Part shown: positions 33,889-49,457 of the stretch, piece after piece | Numbering within the stretch: the first letter of the stretch is position 1 | Layout of the letters: the number at the start of each line of letters is the position of its first letter | DNA from: a virus | Length of the DNA: 64,000 nt | Direction: 5' to 3' (one strand) | IMG/VR virus record: IMGVR_UViG_3300020182_000007 | Notes under the pieces: model-generated | Seen by the model: the letters and a program-made list of their open reading frames with translations, nothing else | The model's database searches: none | What the model was told of the DNA's origin: nothing | Program-made: the position numbers and the translations under genes

Positions 33889-35844
33889 CTACGTAGTAAA
33901 ACCATGTTTAAAATGGCTTGCTGTAAGATATAGCTCTGAAATTACATAGTTAACACCATCATTTATACCTGTTGCATCTTTCTGAAAGTTCATGTATACT
34001 AGCCAACTACCTACACCAATTGCCCTAAAAATGAATCTGCCATGTCTGATGTCGGAATTTGTGTCAGATGATACAGCGTGTAGATCAGTTGAGAATACAT
34101 TGCCCGCATTAAGTTCCTTTAGCTGCATTGCAGAATTTGTAGGCACTGTTCCACTTGGTGTTTCAATTTTAAATGAATATTCTATCATGTACTCTCCAGC
34201 TTCCATAAGGTTAAGGGCTCTAAAGTTACCACCATTCAGTACGGTTCGGACGTTGTTACCAAGGCTATCATGGTCAATCCATGAATCGAATATTACATCA
34301 GTATCTCCTGTTACCTCAAGCGGCTCCGTAAGTACCATTATAGTTGGAACTCCCGTTAACTTGTTTATGGTAGACCATTGTGTGTTATAGTCAATACTGT
34401 CTATTTTTTCAAGTATTTGTCCACTAGTTCCTCCTGCCGGAGATCCAGATCCTCCGCTAGTTCCGCTAGTTCCAGGTGTTCCTACACCAACAACCTTAAC
34501 TACGTCAAACGAAAAGTTAATAGGAGTAAAATTAACTGCAGCTCCTGGAGATGTTCTTTTAAAGTAAACTCCTAATGTATCACCTACCGCTAAGTCAACT
34601 AGCTCCGTTATACCAAACGAACCAATTTTACCAGAATCAAACTCGCGTCTAACTTCAGTTGAAGCTATCGGAAGACCATTTAATTCAATTACGCACCAAA
34701 CATCTGTATTATTAGTATCTACTTCTAAAGACAATTGAACATTTATCTGATATACTCCTGCATACCTAATATTAGGAGCAAACGTTGAAGCTGCAGATCC
34801 AGTACCTGCAACATGCTTTAATTCACTTACTTCTCCAAGAGTTTCAGTATTCCAACCTTCATACGTGTTAAGGGCAAGAAGTCTTGGTGCTCCATTTATT
34901 TCAAACATCTGACCATATGCTACGCCGCCTGTTAGGATTCCACTTGTTCCATCAACTCCAGAAGTTCCATCAACTCCAGAAGTTCCATCAACTCCAGAAG
35001 TTCCATCAACTCCAGAAGTTCCATCAACTCCAGAAGTTCCATCAATTCCAGAAGTTCCATCAATTCCAGAAGTTCCATCAATTCCAGAAGTTCCATGAGT
35101 ACCTAAAAAAGTTCCATCAACTCCTGAAGTACCTGAAGTACCATCTTTACCTGAAGTACCTGCAACTCCTGTTTTACCACTTGTTCCATTAGCACCGTCG
35201 CTTCCGTCTGTTCCGCTTGTTCCGCTTGTTCCACTTGATCCAAAAAACTCTCCAGGCTTTCCAGGCTCTCCCTGCTCTCCCTGCTCTCCCTGCTCTCCAT
35301 CAGTACCTGAAGTTCCATGAGTACCTAAAAAAGCTCCATCAATTCCCGGTTCTCCTTGTGCACCATCTGTTCCGCTTGTTCCACTTGATCCAAAAAACTC
35401 TCCAGGTAATCCGGGAGCACCGACAGAACCGTCTGTTCCGCTTGTTCCATCAGTACCGTCGTTTCCAGCAGCACCGTCGCTTCCGTCTGTTCCGCTTGTT
35501 CCATGTGTCCCAAAAAAAGTTCCATCAACTCCTGACGTTCCAGAAGTTCCAGAAGTTCCGTCAGCGTTTGGAATATCTAACGTCCATTCATATGTACCAT
35601 TAGTTTCTGTAAATTTTAGATACTTTTCAACCTGTGTAGATTCAATAAAATTAGCTACTTTATAGTTTTTAATTGTCTCGTCTGAAAGTTCTAAATTGTA
35701 GTCCATTTCATCATGCGACAATGGTCTTCCTAATAATCCCGGAAGAAGTGGCATCCATTGTCCATTTATACCAGTATACATAGATGCTGGTATACCCTTT
35801 TGTTGAAATAAGATAGCGTATTGTTGTAATGTCTTTCTTGCCAT
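33889..35844 (-). CDS. Collagen-like Ser/Thr-rich fibre protein with beta-rich C-terminal head
   Basis: N-terminal [13 protein letters not shown] fibre-anchor-like motif, long GTSGxDG Gly-X-Y region, BclA/C1q-like C-terminal beta domain. Confidence 0.88.
34947..35094 (-). repeat. 18-bp tandem coding repeat x8 (GTSGVD x5, GTSGID x3)
   Basis: ttccatcaa(c/t)tccagaag repeated. Confidence 0.9.
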
Positions 35845-35845
35845 G

Positions 35846-36403
35846 TTAGCAGTTCTTCTTTTTTATTCCTGGAAAATCAGGTCTTTTGGTTTTTATATAA
35901 TATTTATCAATTAAATCTTCGTATGCCTTATTCTTTGTCTGATCTATATAATCACATGGATTAATATATGTTGAATTCGGATTAATATATGTAAAACAAA
36001 CATATTTGACAAAAATACCATTAAGAGTTGACGTTAATTTAAACAATGTGTTTAACGTATTTGTTGTTATGTCATTTACTCTATTACTTTTTGCAGATTG
36101 AAAATTCTCTCTAATATTATTAATAAAGATCTTTTCTTCTCCATTTGTAATCGTAAAATTTAATAAGCTAGCAACACTTTCATCACATGTATAGCATTCG
36201 CATTCCGGATTGTCTAGTTTTATAAATGGATAGTTATCTACTATGAACTTTTTTAATGAATCAATAGAATCAAACCTAGGTATAGTTTTAGATCCACGCT
36301 TAGATACCATGTTAATTAAAACTGAGCTAACTTTGCTTTCGTTAGCCTCTATTTCCTTTAAGGCATCGTATATATTAATAAGAGTTATACGTTCGAATAC
36401 CAT
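35846..36403 (-). CDS. Hypothetical protein
   Basis: 185-aa ORF coupled to neighbours. Confidence 0.65.
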   Translation of the reverse strand: MVFERITLINIYDALKEIEANESKVSSVLINMVSKRGSKTIPRFDSIDSLKKFIVDNYPFIKLDNPECECYTCDESVASLLNFTITNGEEKIFINNIRENFQSAKSNRVNDITTNTLNTLFKLTSTLNGIFVKYVCFTYINPNSTYINPCDYIDQTKNKAYEDLIDKYYIKTKRPDFPGIKKKNC

Positions 36404-36789
36404 TATTTTTTAGCTAAAATATTAGTTAAGATATACGCAATAAGACCAGCTCCTGTAGTAAATAGAACCCAAAACGCTTTAGAAAAACTACTCTTCCATT
36501 TTACAAGGTCTCTGTGATCTTCTAGTACCTTTTCAATTTCTTTTTGCTTCTTTTCGTGAAATTGTCTAAACTCAGTGTTCTTTCTAATTTCAACAATTGC
36601 ACCATCATACGGGTTTAATAACCTTAACTTAAGATCAGTCATGTTATCTTTCATCTCCTCCTGATTTTTGATTAACTGTTGGATAGAAGTGTCTAGCTGA
36701 ATGTAATTAGGATCTTCCATTCTCTGTTTTAGGCTAGAAAACGATTCGATCAATTCGCTTACTAATTCTTCATTACTTTTAGACGACAT
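36403..36789 (-). CDS. Coiled-coil protein with C-terminal TM helix
   Basis: Heptad-rich body, AFWVLFTTGAGLIAYIL; GATATATA motif upstream. Confidence 0.7.
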   Translation of the reverse strand: MSSKSNEELVSELIESFSSLKQRMEDPNYIQLDTSIQQLIKNQEEMKDNMTDLKLRLLNPYDGAIVEIRKNTEFRQFHEKKQKEIEKVLEDHRDLVKWKSSFSKAFWVLFTTGAGLIAYILTNILAKK

Positions 36790-36822
36790 AATAGTATATT
36801 GCTTTTCTTTTATATATCAAAG

Positions 36823-36851
36823 AAAAAGGACAGCATATTCTGCTGTCCTTT
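36823..36851 (-). terminator. Rho-independent terminator
   Basis: aaaggacagca-tattc-tgctgtccttt with a T-run on the minus strand. Confidence 0.75.
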
Positions 36852-36878
36852 AAATAATACTACTAAATTTGTTGTAAA

Positions 36879-39029
36879 CTAGTTAATGTACATGTTTAAT
36901 TCATATTTATTTCCCATACCATATATTTGAACGTGTACTGCCTTCTTTTGTTCTTTACCGTTTTTATATAATGCTAGAGTATCTTTCTTAGTCTGTCCAT
37001 CTTTTGGTTTAAAGAATCCATCAACGTATGCATTTCCATACTCTCCATTGTCTAGATCGTAACCCATCTTATTAGCATATTTCTCAACCTCATCAATTGC
37101 AGATGAATATTGATTGTGATAAACTTGAAAATCGCTTTTTGATTCATTCAAGAATTGATCTAGTTTAAGAACATGTTTTAAACTTAATGATTCACTTAAA
37201 CCTTTAGTCCAGCTAGAATCTATTTTATATCCATCTAACCATTCTTGAATTTCAGCAAGAGTACCTCTTTTTATTGTAGTGATTGCATTAGAGTATATGC
37301 TAGCATCTTTCTTCATTACATCAAGTTCCCATCTCTTTTTACCAGAAACATATTGTAAATCATATCCCTTTCCTGTTTTAGGATCTGTATATATTGCTGA
37401 TGTTTTACCTTCAGTAACTACCGATCCATCTACTTTCTGGATAATCCATTCTTTCTTTTTTGCAGCAAATTTCTTAGCTAAATGTATTGGCAAATTATTG
37501 TCTACTACTTTACCTGAATTTTTATTAATAACATTATACCTTTCTATGTCCTGATCAATTGTAGTAACTCCTGATTCACTAAGACCTAATGATTTATTAA
37601 CTAGATCTTCAATAACACTAGAATAATCGTCATTCAAGGCCCATTTAATTGTTTGACCTTCACTTCTTGCTTTTTTGTTTATCCATTTAAGGTGTGCTGC
37701 ATCAGTAAGAAATTCAGAAGCTTCTTTTGCAATTCCTTTTGGATCCTTTTTCCATTCTTCAATCGTAGTACCAAAGTTATTACCTACTGTAGCGCCATTG
37801 GTTCTTTTAAGATTATTGATTCCACCGATCTTAATGTATATGTCATTATTAATAGGCATTGCCTCAAAGAAAACTACATCTCTTTCTTCTGGGTTGTTTT
37901 CACCAGATACTTGATCGATAGCATAAGTACTATGAACTCTCCAAGTAGTTTCGCCTTTTACATTATATGCCGCTGAGAATGTATTTGAACCAAATTCAGA
38001 AGCTTTTAACTTATATGCTTTAGCTTCGGTAACTACAGATTCTGGTAAAGGTTTTGCATCTTCATACTTTAGTTTATTATACCACTGAATTGACAGGATA
38101 TAATTATCTGCAAAACTCTTTAGATCCTTTTCACTCTTAAATGATTGACCACCAAGATTAATATCGTGTCCTTTGTAATATAGGTTATAGTGTGCTCCTC
38201 TTGAATTATCTTTTGTTTTAAGAAAAACTATTTCATCGTTTCCAATGAATTTATTTGGCATTTTACCTTCAGTAACTACTGATTCATCCAGTCCAGCTAG
38301 TTGTTTTATTTTTTTAAGAAACTCACTTGCCTTAGGTCCACCATACTGTTGTAATCTTTGTTGCACTAAATCATAGTTTGATATTACCGCTGATTCATTA
38401 CCTCTTTTAAGTGCATTCTTAATTCCAGTAATTCCGTCTTTTACATCTTTCAAATTTTGACCACTAAGACCGGTTTCTTTATAATTAAATCTAGCTTCAG
38501 TAACTACTGATTCGATTATTACCGATTTAAAATCACCAGGTAATCCTCCGTACCATCCAGACTCTTTATTACTAGGAGTTCCTTCACCATAAATGTTATC
38601 TAGAACTTTAACGTCCATTATAACTTCCCATGACTTAGTCTTAGAATCCCATCCAAAATCTTTTTTAATTGAACCTTTTTCGTCTTTAATAAATTCTACA
38701 AAACCATTATAATCATCTTCGTCTTTAAACGCTAGACCAATAGTATTCTTAGCTTCAGTAACTGCTGATTCGTTTTGAGCATCAGCCCATGCAATTTCCC
38801 AATCATCAATATCAAACTTGTAAAATCCTACTAAATCTGCTATTTTATCATTTGCCGATGGATCGTCTTCTCCTCGTTCCACTTCAGTAACATCATAATA
38901 GTTATTATTAATAAATGTTGCAAGATCTTGTTCAGATGGTCTTCTACCTAATTTAGAAATTACTTTCTTAACAGTGTTGTATTTACCAACATCTTCTCTT
39001 CGTTCCTCTATTGTCTTAATATATTTCAT
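36879..39029 (-). CDS. Putative head-packaged polyprotein with ESVVTE linkers
   Basis: Five ESVVTE-type linkers plus SES/LNE variants separating unrelated 75-200-aa modules. Confidence 0.7.
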   Translation of the reverse strand: MKYIKTIEERREDVGKYNTVKKVISKLGRRPSEQDLATFINNNYYDVTEVERGEDDPSANDKIADLVGFYKFDIDDWEIAWADAQNESAVTEAKNTIGLAFKDEDDYNGFVEFIKDEKGSIKKDFGWDSKTKSWEVIMDVKVLDNIYGEGTPSNKESGWYGGLPGDFKSVIIESVVTEARFNYKETGLSGQNLKDVKDGITGIKNALKRGNESAVISNYDLVQQRLQQYGGPKASEFLKKIKQLAGLDESVVTEGKMPNKFIGNDEIVFLKTKDNSRGAHYNLYYKGHDINLGGQSFKSEKDLKSFADNYILSIQWYNKLKYEDAKPLPESVVTEAKAYKLKASEFGSNTFSAAYNVKGETTWRVHSTYAIDQVSGENNPEERDVVFFEAMPINNDIYIKIGGINNLKRTNGATVGNNFGTTIEEWKKDPKGIAKEASEFLTDAAHLKWINKKARSEGQTIKWALNDDYSSVIEDLVNKSLGLSESGVTTIDQDIERYNVINKNSGKVVDNNLPIHLAKKFAAKKKEWIIQKVDGSVVTEGKTSAIYTDPKTGKGYDLQYVSGKKRWELDVMKKDASIYSNAITTIKRGTLAEIQEWLDGYKIDSSWTKGLSESLSLKHVLKLDQFLNESKSDFQVYHNQYSSAIDEVEKYANKMGYDLDNGEYGNAYVDGFFKPKDGQTKKDTLALYKNGKEQKKAVHVQIYGMGNKYELNMYIN

Positions 39030-39241
39030 TATATTCCTAATTTTTTATGTAAGACTTCCATAAATCCCTTGTAATTGTGAGACCCGTATTCGTCTTTTAA
39101 TACTTTACCTACTGCTAAAGCAAAATCCTCATATGACATTGAATCGTCGATTTTAATTATTGCTTTATTAATTCCCTTTGCTAATGCGTCTGATTCTTTA
39201 GATTCATTAATAAACTCGTTAAAATCTGTAGTATGTTTCAT
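39029..39241 (-). CDS. Putative internal head protein
   Basis: Leader MKHTTDFNEFINE-S. Confidence 0.65.
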   Translation of the reverse strand: MKHTTDFNEFINESKESDALAKGINKAIIKIDDSMSYEDFALAVGKVLKDEYGSHNYKGFMEVLHKKLGI

Positions 39242-39245
39242 ATAT

Positions 39246-39896
39246 TTAGTTATTCATTATGTCTGATAGTGACGCAGCGTTTCCAAATTGATAAGAATCA
39301 TTAGTTAATCCAATAGTGTCGTAATTTGTACCTTCACTATAGTCAAACATTACTCCACCATCTAATGAATTATATTGATCCATCACAAAAAACAACTCAT
39401 ATAATTCTTGGAACATTTTATCTTTAATTTTTGAATCAATCCCACTCCCACATGTTACTGCTATTAAGTAGGTTCTCCTACCACCTGGATTAAAGTTTGC
39501 TCTACCTTGAATTTCTCCGCCAACAGTAGAACTCATTGTACCAGACCATCCACCAGCTGCTCCAGTCGAAGACTGATCAACTTCATATTTTTTATACTTC
39601 TTAATTACTTTAGAAATCTTCTCTGCTAATTTAACAGAATTTCTTCCTCGAAATATATCATAATCGTCTTGTTTGTCATCACCTTGAACCATTAAGGGTT
39701 CTTTATAATTAGGTAATTTACCAGACTTAAGAGCTGCTTCAGCGTTCTTTAAAACCTTTGTATAACTACCGCCCCATTTTTCAACAGCTATTTTGGCAAT
39801 TCTAACCTTGTCTTTTAATTTAGATTTAACACCCGATTTATCAAATGAAATAGATTCTTCGTTGACAAACTCTTCAAATAGTTTTACCTTTTTCAT
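39246..39896 (-). CDS. Putative internal head protein
   Basis: Leader MKKVKLFEEFVNE-E. Confidence 0.65.
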   Translation of the reverse strand: MKKVKLFEEFVNEESISFDKSGVKSKLKDKVRIAKIAVEKWGGSYTKVLKNAEAALKSGKLPNYKEPLMVQGDDKQDDYDIFRGRNSVKLAEKISKVIKKYKKYEVDQSSTGAAGGWSGTMSSTVGGEIQGRANFNPGGRRTYLIAVTCGSGIDSKIKDKMFQELYELFFVMDQYNSLDGGVMFDYSEGTNYDTIGLTNDSYQFGNAASLSDIMNN

Positions 39897-39897
39897 A

Positions 39898-40842
39898 CTA
39901 ATTTATTTTCGGGTATTTTTTCTTAAATTCCTTATATATATTTTTATAATTACGGGCGCTCATATGATCTTCAGCAGCTTTAAGTAAATCTTCTAAAGAA
40001 GTCCACTCTGTATTAGCTAATTGGTCCTGAGTTGTTGAAACTTGAGCCATTCTGTCTAGAATTGAATCAATTATTTCAGGAGTTAACTTAGTTTCTTTAC
40101 TCGGTTTATCTATACCATCGGCTCTCTTAAGCGTCCACCAATCAACCTTTTTAGGAATGATATATGTTACAATTCCTTTTTCCTGGTCGTTTCCACTGAT
40201 TCTATTAGGTTGGCCTATATTACTGGTGATATTATCTAAATCTAGATTATCATCAAATCCCTTTAGTACTTTTTTAATTTCTGTAGTTAAATCTTTATTT
40301 GCGTTGTCTGGTTCAGATTTAATAACATACATACCTGAACTATCTGAATCATTATATTGTGCTATACTTTTTAATTTTATAAGTACTTTTTTAATCTCTT
40401 TTCTATATTCTCCTGGTTCTAATCCGTTGTTGTATTCCGGAAACGTTTGAGTTGCTTCCCATACGTTAACAATGTTACTATTAGAAAGAGAATCAGCTTC
40501 TTTTAATTCATGAAAGTTATCATCTACTTGTTTTAAGTATTCATATGCTGATGTTATATGCGATTGAATCCATCCAGGTAAGTCTTTTTCAGTAGTTCCT
40601 ACCTTTTGTTGAATGCTTGATAAAGATTTATACATTGCATTTAATTGACCCTGTGCCATTCCAACTTCGTGGTCTCCATCCTCATTTACTGATTCGCGGA
40701 CTCCATATGTTTGCATGTATTGATCTCGAGTAATTCCAAGACTGTTACAATGGTATTCTATAAAATCCATCGCTCCGTAGTTATCATTTGGTATAAACTG
40801 AGTTATGCCCTTAACAAATTTGTTTCCAAAATATTTTGCCAT
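39898..40842 (-). CDS. Putative modular head protein
   Basis: Internal ESVNE-D and LKE-A sites; DHEVGMAQGQL...WIQSHITSAYEYL module; GATATATA upstream. Confidence 0.55.
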   Translation of the reverse strand: MAKYFGNKFVKGITQFIPNDNYGAMDFIEYHCNSLGITRDQYMQTYGVRESVNEDGDHEVGMAQGQLNAMYKSLSSIQQKVGTTEKDLPGWIQSHITSAYEYLKQVDDNFHELKEADSLSNSNIVNVWEATQTFPEYNNGLEPGEYRKEIKKVLIKLKSIAQYNDSDSSGMYVIKSEPDNANKDLTTEIKKVLKGFDDNLDLDNITSNIGQPNRISGNDQEKGIVTYIIPKKVDWWTLKRADGIDKPSKETKLTPEIIDSILDRMAQVSTTQDQLANTEWTSLEDLLKAAEDHMSARNYKNIYKEFKKKYPKIN

Positions 40843-40868
40843 CTTATATTTAATATTATTTAATTACT

Positions 40869-41348
40869 TTATATATCTAATTGATTTTGAACCTTAGCCC
40901 AATACTTTTCAGTTCTTTTATTTTTTAAACCTCTTGGACCACCATTCCAACAACGAGCTATTTCTTCAAAACCGCCTTCCGGATGATGGTAGTTTTTCCA
41001 AAATAAAAACATTTCAATTGAGCTCTGTCTATCAAATCTATCTTTTAATTTATATCGTTGAGTTGAACCCATTTTTTTTAAAATACGATTTACTTCTCTA
41101 ACCATAACAGGTCTTATTTGTAATACACCAACTGAGGGTTCACCGAGATGTATATCTCCAACTGCAGAATCATTACCTCTAGATTCTACATATATTAATG
41201 CATTTATTAAATCTTTTTCTAGAAGTGGCTGTATTTGCTCGACAGTATCTATGCATTCTGTTTCATAGATAGGTAAAATATCGTTTAATTCGGTACTATT
41301 CATTAACATAGAAGGAAGAAACAATGTCATCATTACAATTCTTTTCAT
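40869..41348 (-). CDS. Lysozyme-like / lytic transglycosylase with N-terminal hydrophobic segment
   Basis: ALIYVES (catalytic Glu), GVLQI, WNGGP. Confidence 0.82.
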   Translation of the reverse strand: MKRIVMMTLFLPSMLMNSTELNDILPIYETECIDTVEQIQPLLEKDLINALIYVESRGNDSAVGDIHLGEPSVGVLQIRPVMVREVNRILKKMGSTQRYKLKDRFDRQSSIEMFLFWKNYHHPEGGFEEIARCWNGGPRGLKNKRTEKYWAKVQNQLDI

Positions 41349-41445
41349 AATATTACGTTAGGTTATAATTAATATATTTAAATGTTGATTTTTTACATAG
41401 CTTATATGAGTAATTTAACAGATGTTTCAAATTTGATTGCTTTAA

Positions 41446-41510
41446 CTATAGTACTAATATAAACAAAAAGATTGACATAAAAAAATATAGAGTGATTTAT
41501 TTTGCAAAAA
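41446..41510 (-). promoter_or_regulatory. Early-type promoter repeat copy
   Basis: Reverse complement contains TTTATATTAGTACTATA and TTTTTATGTCAAT as in the island copies. Confidence 0.6.
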
Positions 41511-41562
41511 AAAATGCAGCTGTTAGGCTGCATTAAGTTTTATATTAAGTTAAGAATAAGAT

Positions 41563-41964
41563 CTAGTATACCATATTAAAATTAGTCTTTAATTCATCGG
41601 CTTCACTAGATTCGTGGTCTTCAACTCCGAAATCAGTCAGCAGCATAGTATACAAGCTGTTCCAATCTTCGTTATCTGCAAAATTATCTAAATGCTTTTG
41701 ATTAGATTTAATATATTTCTTTAAATCGCTTCTTAAGCCTTCAGCAACTACTGATTCATCAAGCCCTAATGCTTTTATTGCAGATGCATGTTCTTTTGAG
41801 GAAACAAAAACAAATGCCTGTCCTTTTTGATTCCAATCAATTTTAGAATCTCTAAGTACATCCATAGCTTTACTTAAATCCATCATATCTGTTATACCCG
41901 CATCTTTAAATGAGAGCATTTTAGCTTCGTTTATAAATTGTTCAAATAATTTAATATGTTTCAT
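41563..41964 (-). CDS. Putative internal head protein, two modules
   Basis: Leader MKHIKLFEQFINE-A; internal ESVVAE-G linker. Confidence 0.7.
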   Translation of the reverse strand: MKHIKLFEQFINEAKMLSFKDAGITDMMDLSKAMDVLRDSKIDWNQKGQAFVFVSSKEHASAIKALGLDESVVAEGLRSDLKKYIKSNQKHLDNFADNEDWNSLYTMLLTDFGVEDHESSEADELKTNFNMVY

Positions 41965-41977
41965 GATTTATCTTTAT

Positions 41978-42253
41978 TTACATTACTTCTTTTACGTCAA
42001 TGTCGTAGATTTTCTTGAGTTGTTTAATAAACTCCATTTCACCTATCTTTTGGAGTAGTTCACGATTTTGCTTTCCGTTAGTCCAAAAAACCTCATGATT
42101 ATCAACTTCGGTAGTTGAACCAAATCTTTTACCACCTTTGTCTATTAACTCAACCTGATCTCCGTCAATAACATCTTTAAAGTCTTGCTTTTTCATACCC
42201 TTTGGTATAGTTGCTTCGTTTAAAAATTGTTCAAATAATTTAATGTATTTCAT
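41978..42253 (-). CDS. Putative internal head protein
   Basis: Leader MKYIKLFEQFLNE-A. Confidence 0.7.
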   Translation of the reverse strand: MKYIKLFEQFLNEATIPKGMKKQDFKDVIDGDQVELIDKGGKRFGSTTEVDNHEVFWTNGKQNRELLQKIGEMEFIKQLKKIYDIDVKEVM

Positions 42254-42267
42254 TTTATATTCAATAT

Positions 42268-44175
42268 TTATTGAATTTTAGTAACTTTACTTTCATTTAC
42301 TTCTGAAGCAAATTCTTCGTATACAGTACCTTTAACTTCTTCTGCATCTTTAAATGCTTTAGCAGATTGCTTTATTTTCTTAATAAATTCCTCAATAGTT
42401 TTCATATCGGCTGGTTTATAATCATCACCAGCATCGTGCTTACCAACCATATAATCAACTGAGTTTTTCAATTCCCACATTGCATTTAATTGTTTTGGTA
42501 ATCTAAAGAATTTAGCTTCAGTAACTACTGATTCATTTTCTACAGTATCACTAGCCATTCTAGAAAATGCTTCAAAAACAATAGTAACATCCTTTACCTT
42601 TAAATCATCTTTAACTAATTCGCCAATCTTATTGTATAAATCTGTTAATTCATCTTCAGTGTGGTGTTTATAACCTTTCTTTAGGGTAATATTAGTTCCG
42701 GAATGTTTTGCCATAAAATCATCTTTAGCTTCAGTAACTACTGATTCATTTAAGTTTTTCTTTAAGAATGCTGTTAAGTCTTTATGAATTTTTTGTGAAT
42801 CTGATGCCTTTATTACACCGCGTTCTTCTAAAAAATTTAATATCTCATTACTAAGAGTTACCTCTTTAATAGCTTCAGTAACTACTGATTCTTTTAAGTT
42901 TTTAATAGTCTTTATAATAGTCTTAACATCATCATCTATATTACCATAAACTGGTGATACATTCGTTTTACGATTCCATGTTGCCATGTTAACTACTGAA
43001 CCATCATCATTGATATTATATGAACCTCCAGCGTATTCTCCAGTTATTCTAGGATCTACATCGTCTTGATCTTCAATATCTAAATCAAATGAATCTTCTT
43101 CATAATCAGAACTAACAGTATATTTCATACCATCTAATTTCGTAAGAGCATCTGCAAATTTCTGTGCAACTTTTAGAGTTTCCTTTTTAGAAAGACCAGC
43201 AGGTTTAGCTTCATCTAATCCTTGTTCTTTATTTTGTTCTGTAGCATAAGCTTCAGCTTCTTCCTCAGTTTTAAAACATTCTACTCTAACATCTCCTTCC
43301 CAAACAGCCCATGGAGTTCCTTCTTCATCACATGGCTTAACAATATATTTATCGTTCGGGTCATCGGTATGATGTTCGCTAGTTCCTTTAATTTTTTCTA
43401 TTAAAGAATCCCATGATATCTTACCTTCAGCTACTTCTTTAGCTCCATCTTCACCATCAACCAACTCATCTTCAACTTCTTCAGTCTCTTCAGATCTGTC
43501 TTTAGCCTTAACGTATTTTTTACCATCAGCATCTTTAACTTCTGGTGTAGTATCTTCTAGATCGCTTTCTAGCTCTTCAGCTGGAAGGTTAAGATCACCT
43601 TCAGCTACTTCTTTAGCTCCATCTTCACCATCAACTAGATCATCTTCAACTTCTTCAGTCTCTTCAGATCTGTCTTTAGCCTTAACGTATTTTTTACCGT
43701 CAGCGTCAACTACTTCTGGTGTAGTATCTTCTAGATCGCTTTCTAGCTCTTCAGCTGGAAGGTTAAGATCACCTTCAGCTACTTCTTTAGCTCCATCTTC
43801 GCCATCAACCAACTCATCTTCAACTTCTTCAGTCTCTTCAGATCTGTCTTCAGCCTTAACGTATTTTTTACCATCAGCATCTTTAACTTCTGGTGTAGTA
43901 TCTTCTAGATCGCTTTCTAGCTCTTCAGCTGGAAGGTTAAGATCACTTTCGAAAGCGACAGCTGCTGTTGTTAATGCAACCATAGCATTTATTTTACCTG
44001 TTGTAAAAAAAGTAAGTGCTTCATTTAGGGAAAGAGGTGTATTAACACCTTCTAGCATTTTTTCAATCCTGTTAGTGTTCTTAGTCTCTACAAGATTAAG
44101 AGCCTCTTTAATCACATCGGCGCTATACGTCGGCGAAGAATCCTCTTTTCTATTATTAAAATTGATAAAACTCAT
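42268..44175 (-). CDS. Acidic putative head/scaffold polyprotein (start revised to MSFINF at 44175)
   Basis: Three 58-aa acidic repeats ending EVAE-G, three ESVVTE-A linkers; GATATATA 27 nt upstream of the ATG at 44175. Confidence 0.7.
   Translation of the reverse strand: MSFINFNNRKEDSSPTYSADVIKEALNLVETKNTNRIEKMLEGVNTPLSLNEALTFFTTGKINAMVALTTAAVAFESDLNLPAEELESDLEDTTPEVKDADGKKYVKAEDRSEETEEVEDELVDGEDGAKEVAEGDLNLPAEELESDLEDTTPEVVDADGKKYVKAKDRSEETEEVEDDLVDGEDGAKEVAEGDLNLPAEELESDLEDTTPEVKDADGKKYVKAKDRSEETEEVEDELVDGEDGAKEVAEGKISWDSLIEKIKGTSEHHTDDPNDKYIVKPCDEEGTPWAVWEGDVRVECFKTEEEAEAYATEQNKEQGLDEAKPAGLSKKETLKVAQKFADALTKLDGMKYTVSSDYEEDSFDLDIEDQDDVDPRITGEYAGGSYNINDDGSVVNMATWNRKTNVSPVYGNIDDDVKTIIKTIKNLKESVVTEAIKEVTLSNEILNFLEERGVIKASDSQKIHKDLTAFLKKNLNESVVTEAKDDFMAKHSGTNITLKKGYKHHTEDELTDLYNKIGELVKDDLKVKDVTIVFEAFSRMASDTVENESVVTEAKFFRLPKQLNAMWELKNSVDYMVGKHDAGDDYKPADMKTIEEFIKKIKQSAKAFKDAEEVKGTVYEEFASEVNESKVTKIQ
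43424..43946 (-). repeat. 174-bp tandem coding repeat x3
   Basis: Encodes GDLNLPAEELESDLEDTTPEVKDADGKKYVKAKDRSEETEEVEDELVDGEDGAKEVAE. Confidence 0.92.
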
Positions 44176-44209
44176 TTGTTGTTTGTTTTTTATTATCTTT
44201 ATTATATAT

Positions 44210-44695
44210 CTAGTTAATACCTGTTGTCTTTTTAATTGCATCTATAAATACATCAGCAGGAACTCTATGTCCTCCAGTGTATTTAGAGTACTTAAAGGTA
44301 CCTACTCCTTCAGTTTCTAAGTATTTTTTAACTGCATATCTATCAATAATTTTGTCAGATTTACCAAAATAAACTGAATTTTTTGTTCCTGTTGAACCAA
44401 TAGAGTCATCGGTATTAGGCTCGAATGTTCTACCAACAACTGCTGGATTAAATAAGAGTGTTGGTATTGATAGTTTAGAACCTATTAAATAAGAAATATA
44501 TCCGCCCATTGAAGAACCCACGATGATATCAGGTTTCATTTTACTAATATCATTTAATAATCTACTAAAGGTTGAATTATCCTTGTAATTTATCGAAGGA
44601 GTATATACTTCATCAAAATTATCGTTTAAAAATATTATTTTAGGATCTTTGGGATCAATTGAGGACTCTAGTCCATGTAAATATGCTATCTTCAT
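44210..44695 (-). CDS. YqiA/YcfP-like alpha/beta hydrolase
   Basis: YLHGLES, GSSMGG nucleophile elbow, LLFNPA, GGH. Confidence 0.88.
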   Translation of the reverse strand: MKIAYLHGLESSIDPKDPKIIFLNDNFDEVYTPSINYKDNSTFSRLLNDISKMKPDIIVGSSMGGYISYLIGSKLSIPTLLFNPAVVGRTFEPNTDDSIGSTGTKNSVYFGKSDKIIDRYAVKKYLETEGVGTFKYSKYTGGHRVPADVFIDAIKKTTGIN

Positions 44696-44708
44696 TATCT
44701 GTTATTAT

Positions 44709-44784
44709 TATATAGTATAAATATAAACAATTTAATTGATATAAAAAACTGTTTAGTGATTTAATTTTATAAAGTTGTTAACAA
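44709..44784 (-). promoter_or_regulatory. Early-type promoter repeat copy
   Basis: TTGTTAACAACTT...TTGTTTATATTTATACTATA on the minus strand, upstream of 44695. Confidence 0.7.
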
Positions 44785-44790
44785 TTTACT

Positions 44791-45387
44791 TTATACTTTA
44801 GGTCTTCCTAGTAGTATTTTATCATGTAAAGAACCTCCAAGCTTTCTTGAATACCAGCCAGCACCTGAAGTTCCATCATCTTTTTTACCAATCCATTTAA
44901 CTTTCTTACCCAATACACTTTCAACTACTTCATGTTCTGAAACAACAGGTACGTCATATGAGTCCATTAAGATGTCTGCTAGTTTACCTGAAACTTCAAT
45001 ATAATATCCCAGATTATTTAATTCCTTTCCACGTTCTCCTATGTATTTTCTTTTAGCATCTCGCGTTCCATCATGCCCAACTCCTGAGTATTTAATACCG
45101 AATCTTGTTTTCTTACCAAACATTATAATATCGAAGTCATTATCACCATGTATATCGATGCCCTCCCAGTAATTCCATTCTGGATCAGCGAATACATCTT
45201 CTGGCGATTTAATTTTAGCATGGCCTCCAATTACAGAGTACGCTGTAGATATTAAATCAAAAAATTCACCCGCTAATTCTGGATGTTTCTTATGATCAAA
45301 CTTGACTTTCTTATTACGCTTTGGATTAAATATATCTCCGCTAGATTCTTCACTAATGAAATCTTCAAATAATTTTACTTTTTTCAT
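44791..45387 (-). CDS. Putative internal head protein
   Basis: Leader MKKVKLFEDFISE-E. Confidence 0.7.
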   Translation of the reverse strand: MKKVKLFEDFISEESSGDIFNPKRNKKVKFDHKKHPELAGEFFDLISTAYSVIGGHAKIKSPEDVFADPEWNYWEGIDIHGDNDFDIIMFGKKTRFGIKYSGVGHDGTRDAKRKYIGERGKELNNLGYYIEVSGKLADILMDSYDVPVVSEHEVVESVLGKKVKWIGKKDDGTSGAGWYSRKLGGSLHDKILLGRPKV

Positions 45388-45451
45388 TTTAATTTATTTC
45401 TATTTATTTATAAAAAAAGGGTACCCCATTTGGGATACCCTAATACCGCGG

Positions 45452-45637
45452 TTAAGCTGGACCACCTACTCCGAAATACCAATGTGCATCTTCGCCTGTT
45501 GTGTCTAGAAGTTCTTCTAGATTTACGATGTATTGTGCTTTCTTCTCGTAAACTTTCGTTTCTTCTATTCCAATAGGCTCCGTCGCAATTTGCTTTTCTT
45601 CGATTGTGATTTTGCCTTCTGAAATAGGTTCTTTCAT
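45452..45637 (-). CDS. Small acidic hypothetical protein
   Basis: 61 aa; GATATATA motif upstream. Confidence 0.45.
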   Translation of the reverse strand: MKEPISEGKITIEEKQIATEPIGIEETKVYEKKAQYIVNLEELLDTTGEDAHWYFGVGGPA

Positions 45638-45704
45638 TGTTTTTAGTTAGCTTTTTTTGAGGTTATGCGTGAACGTACATGATTTCACATACTATATATC
45701 TAAT

Positions 45705-46025
45705 TTAACTAACGTTACCCTGTTTATTTGATAAACTCAGTGTCTTCTTTGTTTTTGGTTTTTTATAAAGAGTTCTTATTTTATCTCCGTTGTCATCTAG
45801 TTCATCGATTAAATCCCATTCGACGCTGTGCATCTTTTCAATCTTTTTAGCCTCTTTTTTTGCATCTGAGAGCAATCCTGCACGGATTAGATATGTCTCA
45901 CTTGATGTACTTATGAATTTATAAGTCTTATGTCCAGGTACTGTGTTTTTTGACATGTTAGACATAGAAGACACTACTAAAATAACAGCAATCGAAGACA
46001 TTATAAGTATTAATACTGCTTCCAT
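45705..46025 (-). CDS. N-terminally membrane-anchored protein
   Basis: Hydrophobic first 20 residues, basic tail. Confidence 0.6.
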   Translation of the reverse strand: MEAVLILIMSSIAVILVVSSMSNMSKNTVPGHKTYKFISTSSETYLIRAGLLSDAKKEAKKIEKMHSVEWDLIDELDDNGDKIRTLYKKPKTKKTLSLSNKQGNVS

Positions 46026-48653: not shown

Positions 48654-49457
48654 CTATAATTGTTTATGTTTACATTTTTCAAAGTGATATCTGGTCATTA
48701 ATGTTGCTCCTCCAACTTTACCACAGTGTGGACATGTTACTTTTACCTGAGTACGTCCATGCATACCCTTACTTATGTTGAGTTTATGTTCTTCAGATAA
48801 TTTAACTCCTTTCTTCAAGGCTGATGTTTTAGGCCTCTTTTTACCTTTATTGGCATTAGATATATTCTTAGATGTCTGTGCCTTTAACTTATCTCTCGTA
48901 CCAAATAGCTCAAAGTTCGAGAATAATATCCAACCCTTATATATGTTATAAGATCCTCGTACAACATAACCAAACATCGAAGCTCCAGTACCCCCAACCC
49001 TTTGATTCATCTCATGTTGAGTCGCCTTCCGATATTCTCTAGTATCTATATTGTAGAATTCATATATTGTTTGATTAGCACGTGGATTTTTAAGACCACC
49101 TAATGAGCCCTCTTTAGTTTGTCTATATTCTTTCATAAACTTAGAGTTCTTTACATAGGCTTCATCAGAGATATACCCGCCATTAGCGTTTCGACATACA
49201 TTATATGCAATTGGATCCTGATCTAATTTATAGAGTGATAGAAATCTACCTTCGAATTCGAAAGCATCCTCTCTTGTATTGAATAGCCTTAGAATCTTTC
49301 CTTCGAATGATTCTTTACCATATTTTTTATAAGCTCTTTTGAGTACTTTACCAGAACCTTCATATCCATCAGATATGCCTGAACCATAATAATAGCGTCC
49401 ATTTGCTTTGTTGGTAATTACGTAAAAATAGGGTTGGTTTGTTGGGTTATTGATCAT
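48654..49457 (-). mobile_element. Free-standing GIY-YIG homing endonuclease with NUMOD3-like motif and C-terminal Zn finger
   Basis: YFYVITN...YYYGS, YEGSG..LKRAYKKYG, YNV, LSEEHKLNIS, CPHCGK...HFEKC; flanked by a 19-bp direct repeat. Confidence 0.88.

Follow-up and report, generated by a model that had tools for sequence, protein, structure and literature searches.

An in-frame ESVVTE linker joins exchangeable modules of probable head-cargo polyproteins in a distant T4-like giant phage

A 64,000-nt stretch (the window) of the IMG/VR virus record IMGVR_UViG_3300020182_000007, a viral contig of 148,784 bp with 33.6% GC, contains three genes in which small protein modules are joined by a conserved 18-bp linker, GAATCAGTAGTTACTGAA, encoding the peptide Glu-Ser-Val-Val-Thr-Glu (ESVVTE). 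Our analyses suggest that these genes probably encode polyproteins packaged inside the phage's head and cut into their modules by the prohead protease, with the linker serving also as a joint at which module cassettes are exchanged in frame.

The 18-mer lies on the minus strand of the window, which corrects a first-pass annotation of this DNA. A search of the window recovered all the positions and mismatch counts given there, namely, five copies that match exactly, two that differ at one base and two that differ at two (Table 1; arrows mark the known or predicted cut, or the matching position). A tenth copy with three mismatches was also found, which reads ESGVTT and in which the final Glu is gone. 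These 10 matches compare with 0.14 expected, and none of 100 shuffles reached 10. As had been claimed, every copy in the window is in frame and the copies fall in three genes, all on the minus strand (716, 133, and 657 aa); the whole record has 13 in-frame linker sites spread over four genes. Where the site is intact (nine copies), the peptide is (E/G)S(V/A)V(T/A)E, and the next residue is Ala in six and Gly in three. Thus the annotation's statement that Ala or Gly always follows is true of the window (9/9 intact sites) but not of relatives, in which 178 of 336 sites are followed by Ala, 70 by Gly and 88 by another residue. The modules measure 48 to 205 aa, in keeping with the 50 to 200 aa first estimated, and they are indeed unrelated: an all-versus-all comparison of 22 modules (from the linker genes and small neighboring genes, with linkers and leaders trimmed) gave no similarity at E ≤ 0.01. 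Relatives of the module that ends at the decayed copy carry an intact ES(A/V/I/L)VTE at that point. Because its final Glu is lost, ESGVTT can probably no longer be cut.

The record encodes a T4-type head gene set in the order portal, protease, capsid, namely, a gp20-type portal protein (PF07230, 236.8 bits), a Peptidase_S77 prohead protease (PF03420, 52.6 and 50.5 bits, with a cut-off of 27) and a gp23-type major capsid protein (PF07068, 147.9 bits). The protease motifs GELDHP and ISSRA, which correspond to the catalytic His and Ser regions, align to GELNHP and VSSRG of T4 gp21. Among capsid proteins, the closest come from a 462-kb phage that is uncultured (50% identity), from the Lak phages of Prevotella and from Tenacibaculum jumbo phages, and by these nearest relatives the virus is a distant T4-like giant phage; we infer that its host is probably in the Bacteroidota. 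No match was found for the capsid protein by phmmer against PDB sequences, for the locus by megablast against named phages or for the 657-aa protein by tblastn. When cultured phages were searched with the 716-aa protein, only its last module was matched, in gp20 of Methylophilales phage Melnitz (462 aa; MZ577097.1 17131-18519), where the shared module stands behind EMDE↓A. This module also matches relatives by itself, and the likeness to Melnitz gp20 therefore extends the design to cultured T4-like marine phages. Inspection by eye of Melnitz gp20 also revealed a short DPKTGKGY motif in common with the penultimate module of the 716-aa protein and an IAE↓A site near the N terminus.

The T4 protease, gp21, cleaves behind the Glu of L/I-x-E, and for the related enzymes of giant phages the site is S/A-x-E (PMC9026906, PMC5694885). 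The V-T-E of the linker, followed by A or G, conforms to the hydrophobic/small-x-Glu rule of T4-type protease substrates, which is a fit of sequence only. To that extent the first-pass view that the linker suits a T4-like protease cutting after Glu was upheld, as ESVVTE↓A matches hydrophobic-x-Glu and an S77 protease is encoded in the genome. Moreover, SVVTE↓A resembles both T4 gp23 at its known cut (GSFLTE↓AEIGG, read from the T4 record) and the maturation site of the phage's own capsid protein, which starts MATLINE↓AEIRS (MANLINE↓(A/S)EIR in three relatives). Among 146 non-redundant linker contexts, the last Glu and the P3 Val were each present in 146, and 69% had L, V, I, Y or F two residues ahead of the first Glu. 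The usual linker is, by this pattern, a predicted tandem double site, [LIV]-x-E↓S-V-V-T-E↓[AG]. An S77 protease and a capsid gene were both present in four of five large linker-bearing contigs; the fifth, an incomplete record, contains neither.

The linker shares its position at module borders with an N-terminal leader. Approximately 12 genes of the genome, five of them within the 8.5-kb island that holds the polyprotein genes, start with MK(H/K/Y)(I/V)KLFE(Q/E/D)F(I/L/V)(N/S/T)E, after which the next residue is A, S, E or G. PMC9026906 describes a capsid targeting sequence of T4 that this leader closely resembles in sequence. The 133-aa protein carries it in full, and the 716-aa protein has a truncated version, although in relatives module 1 of the latter bears the complete one. 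The modules that are joined by linkers here also occur, in relatives, as stand-alone genes behind a leader of the form MK..K.FE.FINE↓A. For example, module 5 of the 716-aa protein (AKAYKLKA..., aa 336 to 490) is a stand-alone 164-aa gene behind MKNLKTFEAFINE↓A in two loci (L137 and L138) and follows MKKIKLYEEFIVE↓A in P0018. In 14 other loci it lies inside a longer protein, where the junction ahead of it is ESVVTE↓A, ELVVTE↓A, ESVNE↓A or FGSTNE↓A, and its downstream neighbor differs in nearly every case. Similarly, module 2 comes first, after MKFDKFIEHEVVTE↓A, in a 270-aa protein (L110), MNIKRTFEEFINE↓K precedes module 1 in P0005 and proteins like it, and another module stands behind MNFNTFINE↓G in P0037 and behind ESAVTE↓G in L126. 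The leader end and the linker are thus interchangeable junctions, because the same modules start directly after either one. The mature N terminus predicted by the rule is identical in the two settings; of the indirect evidence for processing at both junctions, we regard this as the strongest.

These data bear on the possibility that the genes encode uncut multidomain proteins that act at full length inside or outside the virion, with ESVVTE a flexible spacer that is reused because recombination occurs there. Single phage polypeptides that combine many unrelated domains are known as "polyvalent" proteins (Iyer et al. 2017, PMC5512222), a trait that the present proteins share, and the cleavage that we propose is itself deduced from sequence. 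Module 5, the only module whose structure was predicted, gave a compact alpha/beta domain (pLDDT 72, pTM 0.72) flanked by linker-side ends that were both predicted to be disordered (pLDDT < 50), as would be the case for any spacer. The suggestion in the first-pass annotation that each module be folded separately was followed for this module alone, and there it yielded a compact domain with disordered linker-side ends. No significant structural neighbor of the model was found in PDB or BFVD, and comparison with the ESM Atlas gave only TM scores below 0.45. However, a mere spacer would not need to keep its last Glu and P3 Val without exception, nor would it trade places with the terminal part of a cleavable leader of T4 type or resemble the maturation site of the capsid protein. 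The single decayed copy, in addition, sits in an otherwise conserved context. Polyvalent proteins are delivered with the invading DNA, and their proteolytic release has been proposed (PMC5512222); they are defined by known conflict domains, with release through an embedded zincin-like peptidase, whereas the cutter proposed here is a separate prohead protease. Searches of Pfam and PHROG detected neither conflict domains nor a zincin-like peptidase in the polyproteins, which by that definition are not polyvalent proteins; indeed, no Pfam or PHROG family at all was matched. Overall, we consider uncut proteins an unlikely explanation.

Two further observations connect the polyproteins with the head. 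First, a 58-aa acidic unit that occurs three times in the 657-aa protein recurs once, nearly identical, in the C-terminal extension of the protease protein. (This tail is also dense in [LIV]-x-E↓[AGS] sites.) Second, the motif GATATATA is found 33 times on the coding strand of the record and once on the opposite strand, usually 20 to 40 nt ahead of start codons, including those of head, tail and cargo genes. Its distance from the protease gene downstream of it is 20 to 40 nt and from the capsid gene ∼80 nt, and it also precedes the genes for the 657-aa polyprotein, for a fourth linker polyprotein of 582 aa and for a 314-aa protein that heads the run ending in the 716-aa gene. GATATATA is a candidate late promoter that differs from that of T4 (TATAAATA). 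These links argue against the alternative that the linkers are cut but the proteins are not head cargo, that is, that they are cytoplasmic precursors processed outside the capsid by the S77 protease or by another Glu-specific protease of host or phage. That the 657-aa and 716-aa proteins start without a full canonical leader speaks for such precursors. T4-type prohead proteases, however, act within the prohead (PMC9026906), stand-alone versions of the same modules have T4-like capsid-targeting leaders, the acidic repeat is common to the 657-aa protein and the protease-scaffold protein, and the cargo genes have the motif that is seen upstream of head genes. Processing in the cytoplasm is thus quite improbable.

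The evidence for exchange at the linker comes from related viruses. The exact 18-mer was found in at least 115 other IMG/VR viral stretches, all with 29 to 42% GC; among the matches listed it is almost always in frame as ESVVTE within long open reading frames (ORFs), with up to seven copies per ORF. The 716-aa protein has 290 database homologs, none of which covers more than 53% of it, and a typical homolog covers 11 to 30% at 55 to 95% identity. Linkers, one to nine per protein, are borne by 111 of the 120 best-matching proteins. The borders of the modules of the 716-aa protein (aa 10 to 92, 93 to 178, 179 to 254, 255 to 335, 336 to 490, 491 to 540, 541 to 629, and 630 to 716) coincide with homology breakpoints in relatives. 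In 105 unique linker proteins, 33 to 35% of internal homology breakpoints fell within 10 aa of a linker compared to 9% for random positions, the observations not being independent of one another. When the loci of nine other phages were anchored on module 5, ungapped nucleotide identity was about 0.3 (0.13 to 0.5 in single blocks) upstream of the linker and 0.9 to 1.0 directly downstream. The capsid proteins of three of these nine are 70 to 71% identical to that of this phage, and those of other linker-bearing giant contigs are 69 to 74% identical. The step in identity at the linker between phages with such diverged capsids indicates that modules move horizontally between diverged genomes. The comparison of related loci proposed in the first-pass annotation, by breakpoints and by this identity step, thus showed, at the level of aligned sequences, that modules are gained, lost and reordered exactly at the linker.

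The silent sites of the linker are also conserved. Seven of the eight ESVVTE peptides encoded in the genome are spelled by the exact 18-mer, compared to 1.8% expected from codon usage (binomial p = 5e-12). As loci fetched with the 18-mer are biased toward it, a second set of loci was fetched with module 5 as the protein query. Across the 20 non-redundant linkers of that set, TCA was used in 80% of cases compared to 35% in the module body, GTA in 86% compared to 38%, GTT in 100% compared to 51% and ACT in 100% compared to 57% (Fisher p 3e-6 to 3e-3). The two sets agree, and the codon-usage test that had been suggested thus places the silent identity beyond codon bias, as does the contrast between linker and module body. 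Close kinship of the contigs was likewise ruled out as a cause, given capsid proteins that are 69 to 74% identical, and so was a hairpin, as the one predicted is weak (−2.8 kcal/mol) and disappears in the common ESVVNE variant. With codon bias and close kinship excluded, what remains is homogenization by ongoing exchange through the linker, selection on the DNA sequence or both.

Selection on the DNA could reflect a role other than exchange, such as an endonuclease or recombinase site, or a "frame guard" of stop codons. The linker codons TCA, GTA, GTT, and ACT each make a stop in another frame, and with the consensus spelling four of the five other frames are closed, the maximum, which only 8 of 1,536 spellings do (3.2% by codon usage). 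The core of the 18-mer is an imperfect palindrome, TCAGTA-GT-TACTGA, with a weak 5-bp hairpin, and a homing-endonuclease gene lies nearby (48654-49457). The frame closure and the palindrome were, however, both noticed post hoc, and the motif was seen only in frame inside genes. An Rfam scan of positions 36000 to 46000 gave no match, and nothing ties the endonuclease to the linker. Taken with the weakness of the hairpin, these points make another DNA or RNA role quite improbable. Somewhat more probable, though still tentative, is the reading that the 18-bp linker is a dedicated in-frame exchange site, a "protein-level integron" that would act as recombination joint, cut site and perhaps off-frame stop guard at once.

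In the mechanism that we favor, the cargo genes would probably be transcribed along with the head genes, and the precursors would enter the assembling prohead through the T4-like capsid-targeting leader or the scaffold-like acidic repeat. The T4-type Peptidase_S77 prohead protease would then cut after the Glu of each (hydrophobic)-x-Glu site, for which the linker would usually offer tandem sites, [L/I/V]-x-E↓S-V-V-T-E↓[A/G]. The freed modules of 50 to 200 aa would remain with the DNA and presumably be ejected into the host. Related phages would swap single modules in frame at the 18 bases of the linker, so that new combinations stay translatable and cuttable.

Several points weigh against head-packaged polyproteins that are cut and exchanged at the linker. 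Cleavage, packaging, ejection and homologous recombination on the 18-mer are all steps that we infer. The linker has Val at P3, where the published T4 rule has Leu or Ile, and (hydrophobic)-x-Glu is found by chance within modules as well; because the motif is short and so arises by chance, the fit to the rule is on its own weak evidence. A canonical leader is missing from the 657-aa protein, and the one on the 716-aa protein is truncated. At some junctions relatives use FGSTNE↓A or ESVNE↓A, so the exact 18-mer is not needed for a working junction. One module alone matches a cultured phage (Melnitz). Finally, to call the modules "effectors" is a guess, because none has a recognized family, fold or function.

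The nearest precedents for such cargo are the T4 internal proteins IPI, IPII, IPIII, and Alt (PMC9026906, PMC3012670, PMC12373910). The two systems have in common the T4-type portal, protease and capsid set, an N-terminal leader of ∼10 to 13 aa with hydrophobic-x-Glu at its end (here MKHIKLFEQFINE↓A), the use of one leader for many small proteins that are unrelated, and a variable, fast-changing repertoire. In T4, however, each internal protein is the product of its own gene and is cut once or twice, whereas here, judging from the genes, up to eight unrelated modules share one frame and are joined by a repeated internal site. The inner-body and ejection proteins of the giant phages phiKZ, 201phi2-1, and SPN3US (PMC9026906, PMC5694885, PMC10052503) undergo several S/A-x-E cuts by a gp21-like protease; redundant multiple sites per protein and a short motif with Glu are found in both cases, the cuts here being predicted. 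Those cuts mostly remove the propeptides of single proteins, and no linker peptide, module strings or DNA junction has been described for them. Short conserved DNA motifs at cassette borders, at which T4-type phages acquire, lose and exchange small accessory genes, are known from PeSL cassettes and T-even internal-protein loci (PMC2839356, PMC4122927). PeSL, however, is an intergenic early promoter with a G+C-rich stem-loop and moves whole genes, whereas the motif here is coding and in frame, is at the same time the predicted protease site, and the swapped units are protein modules within a gene. A literature search found no paper that contains "ESVVTE" or describes linker-joined cargo polyproteins.

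Table 1. Linker sites, polyprotein genes and associated features
Feature	Location	Strand	Basis
716-aa polyprotein: short leader MKYIKTIEE↓R and ∼8 modules	36879..39029	minus	ORF, translation, linker map
Linker ESAVTE↓A, one mismatch to the 18-mer	38754..38771	minus	Sequence search and linker map
Linker ESVVTE↓A, exact; preceding V-I-I-E is a second site of like type	38496..38513	minus	
Linker ESVVTE↓G, exact; preceded by G-L-D-E	38268..38285	minus	
Linker ESVVTE↓A, two silent changes (TCT, ACC); opens module 5 (AKAYKLKA...)	38025..38042	minus	
Decayed linker ESGVTT↓I, three mismatches	37560..37577	minus	
Linker GSVVTE↓G, two mismatches	37410..37427	minus	
Leader-like internal junction LDQFLNE↓S, directly ahead of the last module of the 716-aa protein	37143..37163	minus	
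Two leader-first small genes, 70 aa and 216 aa: MKHTTDFNEFINE↓S and MKKVKLFEEFVNE↓E	39029..39896	minus	
133-aa mini-polyprotein: leader MKHIKLFEQFINE↓A, module, GLDE↓SVVAE↓G, module	41563..41964	minus	
Linker ESVVAE↓G, one mismatch	41740..41757	minus	
91-aa gene, leader MKYIKLFEQFLNE↓A at start	41978..42253	minus	
657-aa ORF	42268..44241	minus	ORF and linker map
Linker ESVVTE↓A, exact	42517..42534	minus	
Linker ESVVTE↓A, exact	42730..42747	minus	
Linker ESVVTE↓A, exact	42874..42891	minus	
Three tandem 174-nt (58-aa) acidic repeats, each ending KEVAE↓G	43423..43950	minus	Tandem-repeat search
UPF0227 (alpha/beta hydrolase-like) gene, stand-alone here	44210..44695	minus	Pfam PF05728, 39.9 bits
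198-aa gene, leader MKKVKLFEDFISE↓E at start	44791..45387	minus	
Prohead protease fused to a ∼400-aa scaffold-like tail, 615 aa in total	L003:4337-6184 (outside the window)		
Fourth linker polyprotein, 582 aa, three sites, adjoining the head genes	L003:9066-10814 (outside the window)		

Some further features of these genes and their surroundings were noted. In the 716-aa protein, the leader-like junction LDQFLNE↓S before the final module looks like a remnant of some once separate leader-bearing gene. The 657-aa ORF consists of an N-terminal region, the three acidic repeats, a module ending in GLDE↓A and four modules joined by the three exact linkers. This ORF is probably over-extended, with its true start at Met23 (position 44175; MSFINFNN...), because GATATATA (44203-44210) falls in its 5′ extension; the first 22 codons also contain the stop codon of the upstream gene. 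The UPF0227 domain that is encoded by a stand-alone gene here is fused in relatives to linker polyproteins, as their N terminus (P0030, P0075, and P0120). In the 582-aa polyprotein, the C-terminal end is made of ∼17 tandem copies of the 7-aa unit (D/E)KGTSGK. The 314-aa protein (39898-40842) has a short form of the linker, RESVNE↓D, near residue 50 and an N terminus like those of P0015 and P0026; the same short form also joins modules in relatives (L123 and L133), and the protein probably belongs to the linker-polyprotein class. In the middle of the cargo-gene island lies a gene for a lytic transglycosylase (SLT, PF01464; 40869-41348) with a hydrophobic N terminus. The island is flanked by genes for a collagen-like tail-fiber protein of 651 aa (33889-35844) and for the homing endonuclease mentioned above (267 aa, phrog_314).

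If head packaging, cleavage and exchange at the linker are borne out, a large and widespread group of aquatic giant phages would deliver a combinatorial set of small proteins into the host with their DNA, a set that they would assemble and refresh through module exchange at a single fixed junction. The T4 internal-protein paradigm would widen from one gene per protein to exchangeable polyproteins, and hundreds of small domains would become candidate first-minute host-takeover or anti-defense proteins. The order leader, module, ESVVTE, module would, in addition, represent a natural design rule for loading several proteins into T4-type capsids.

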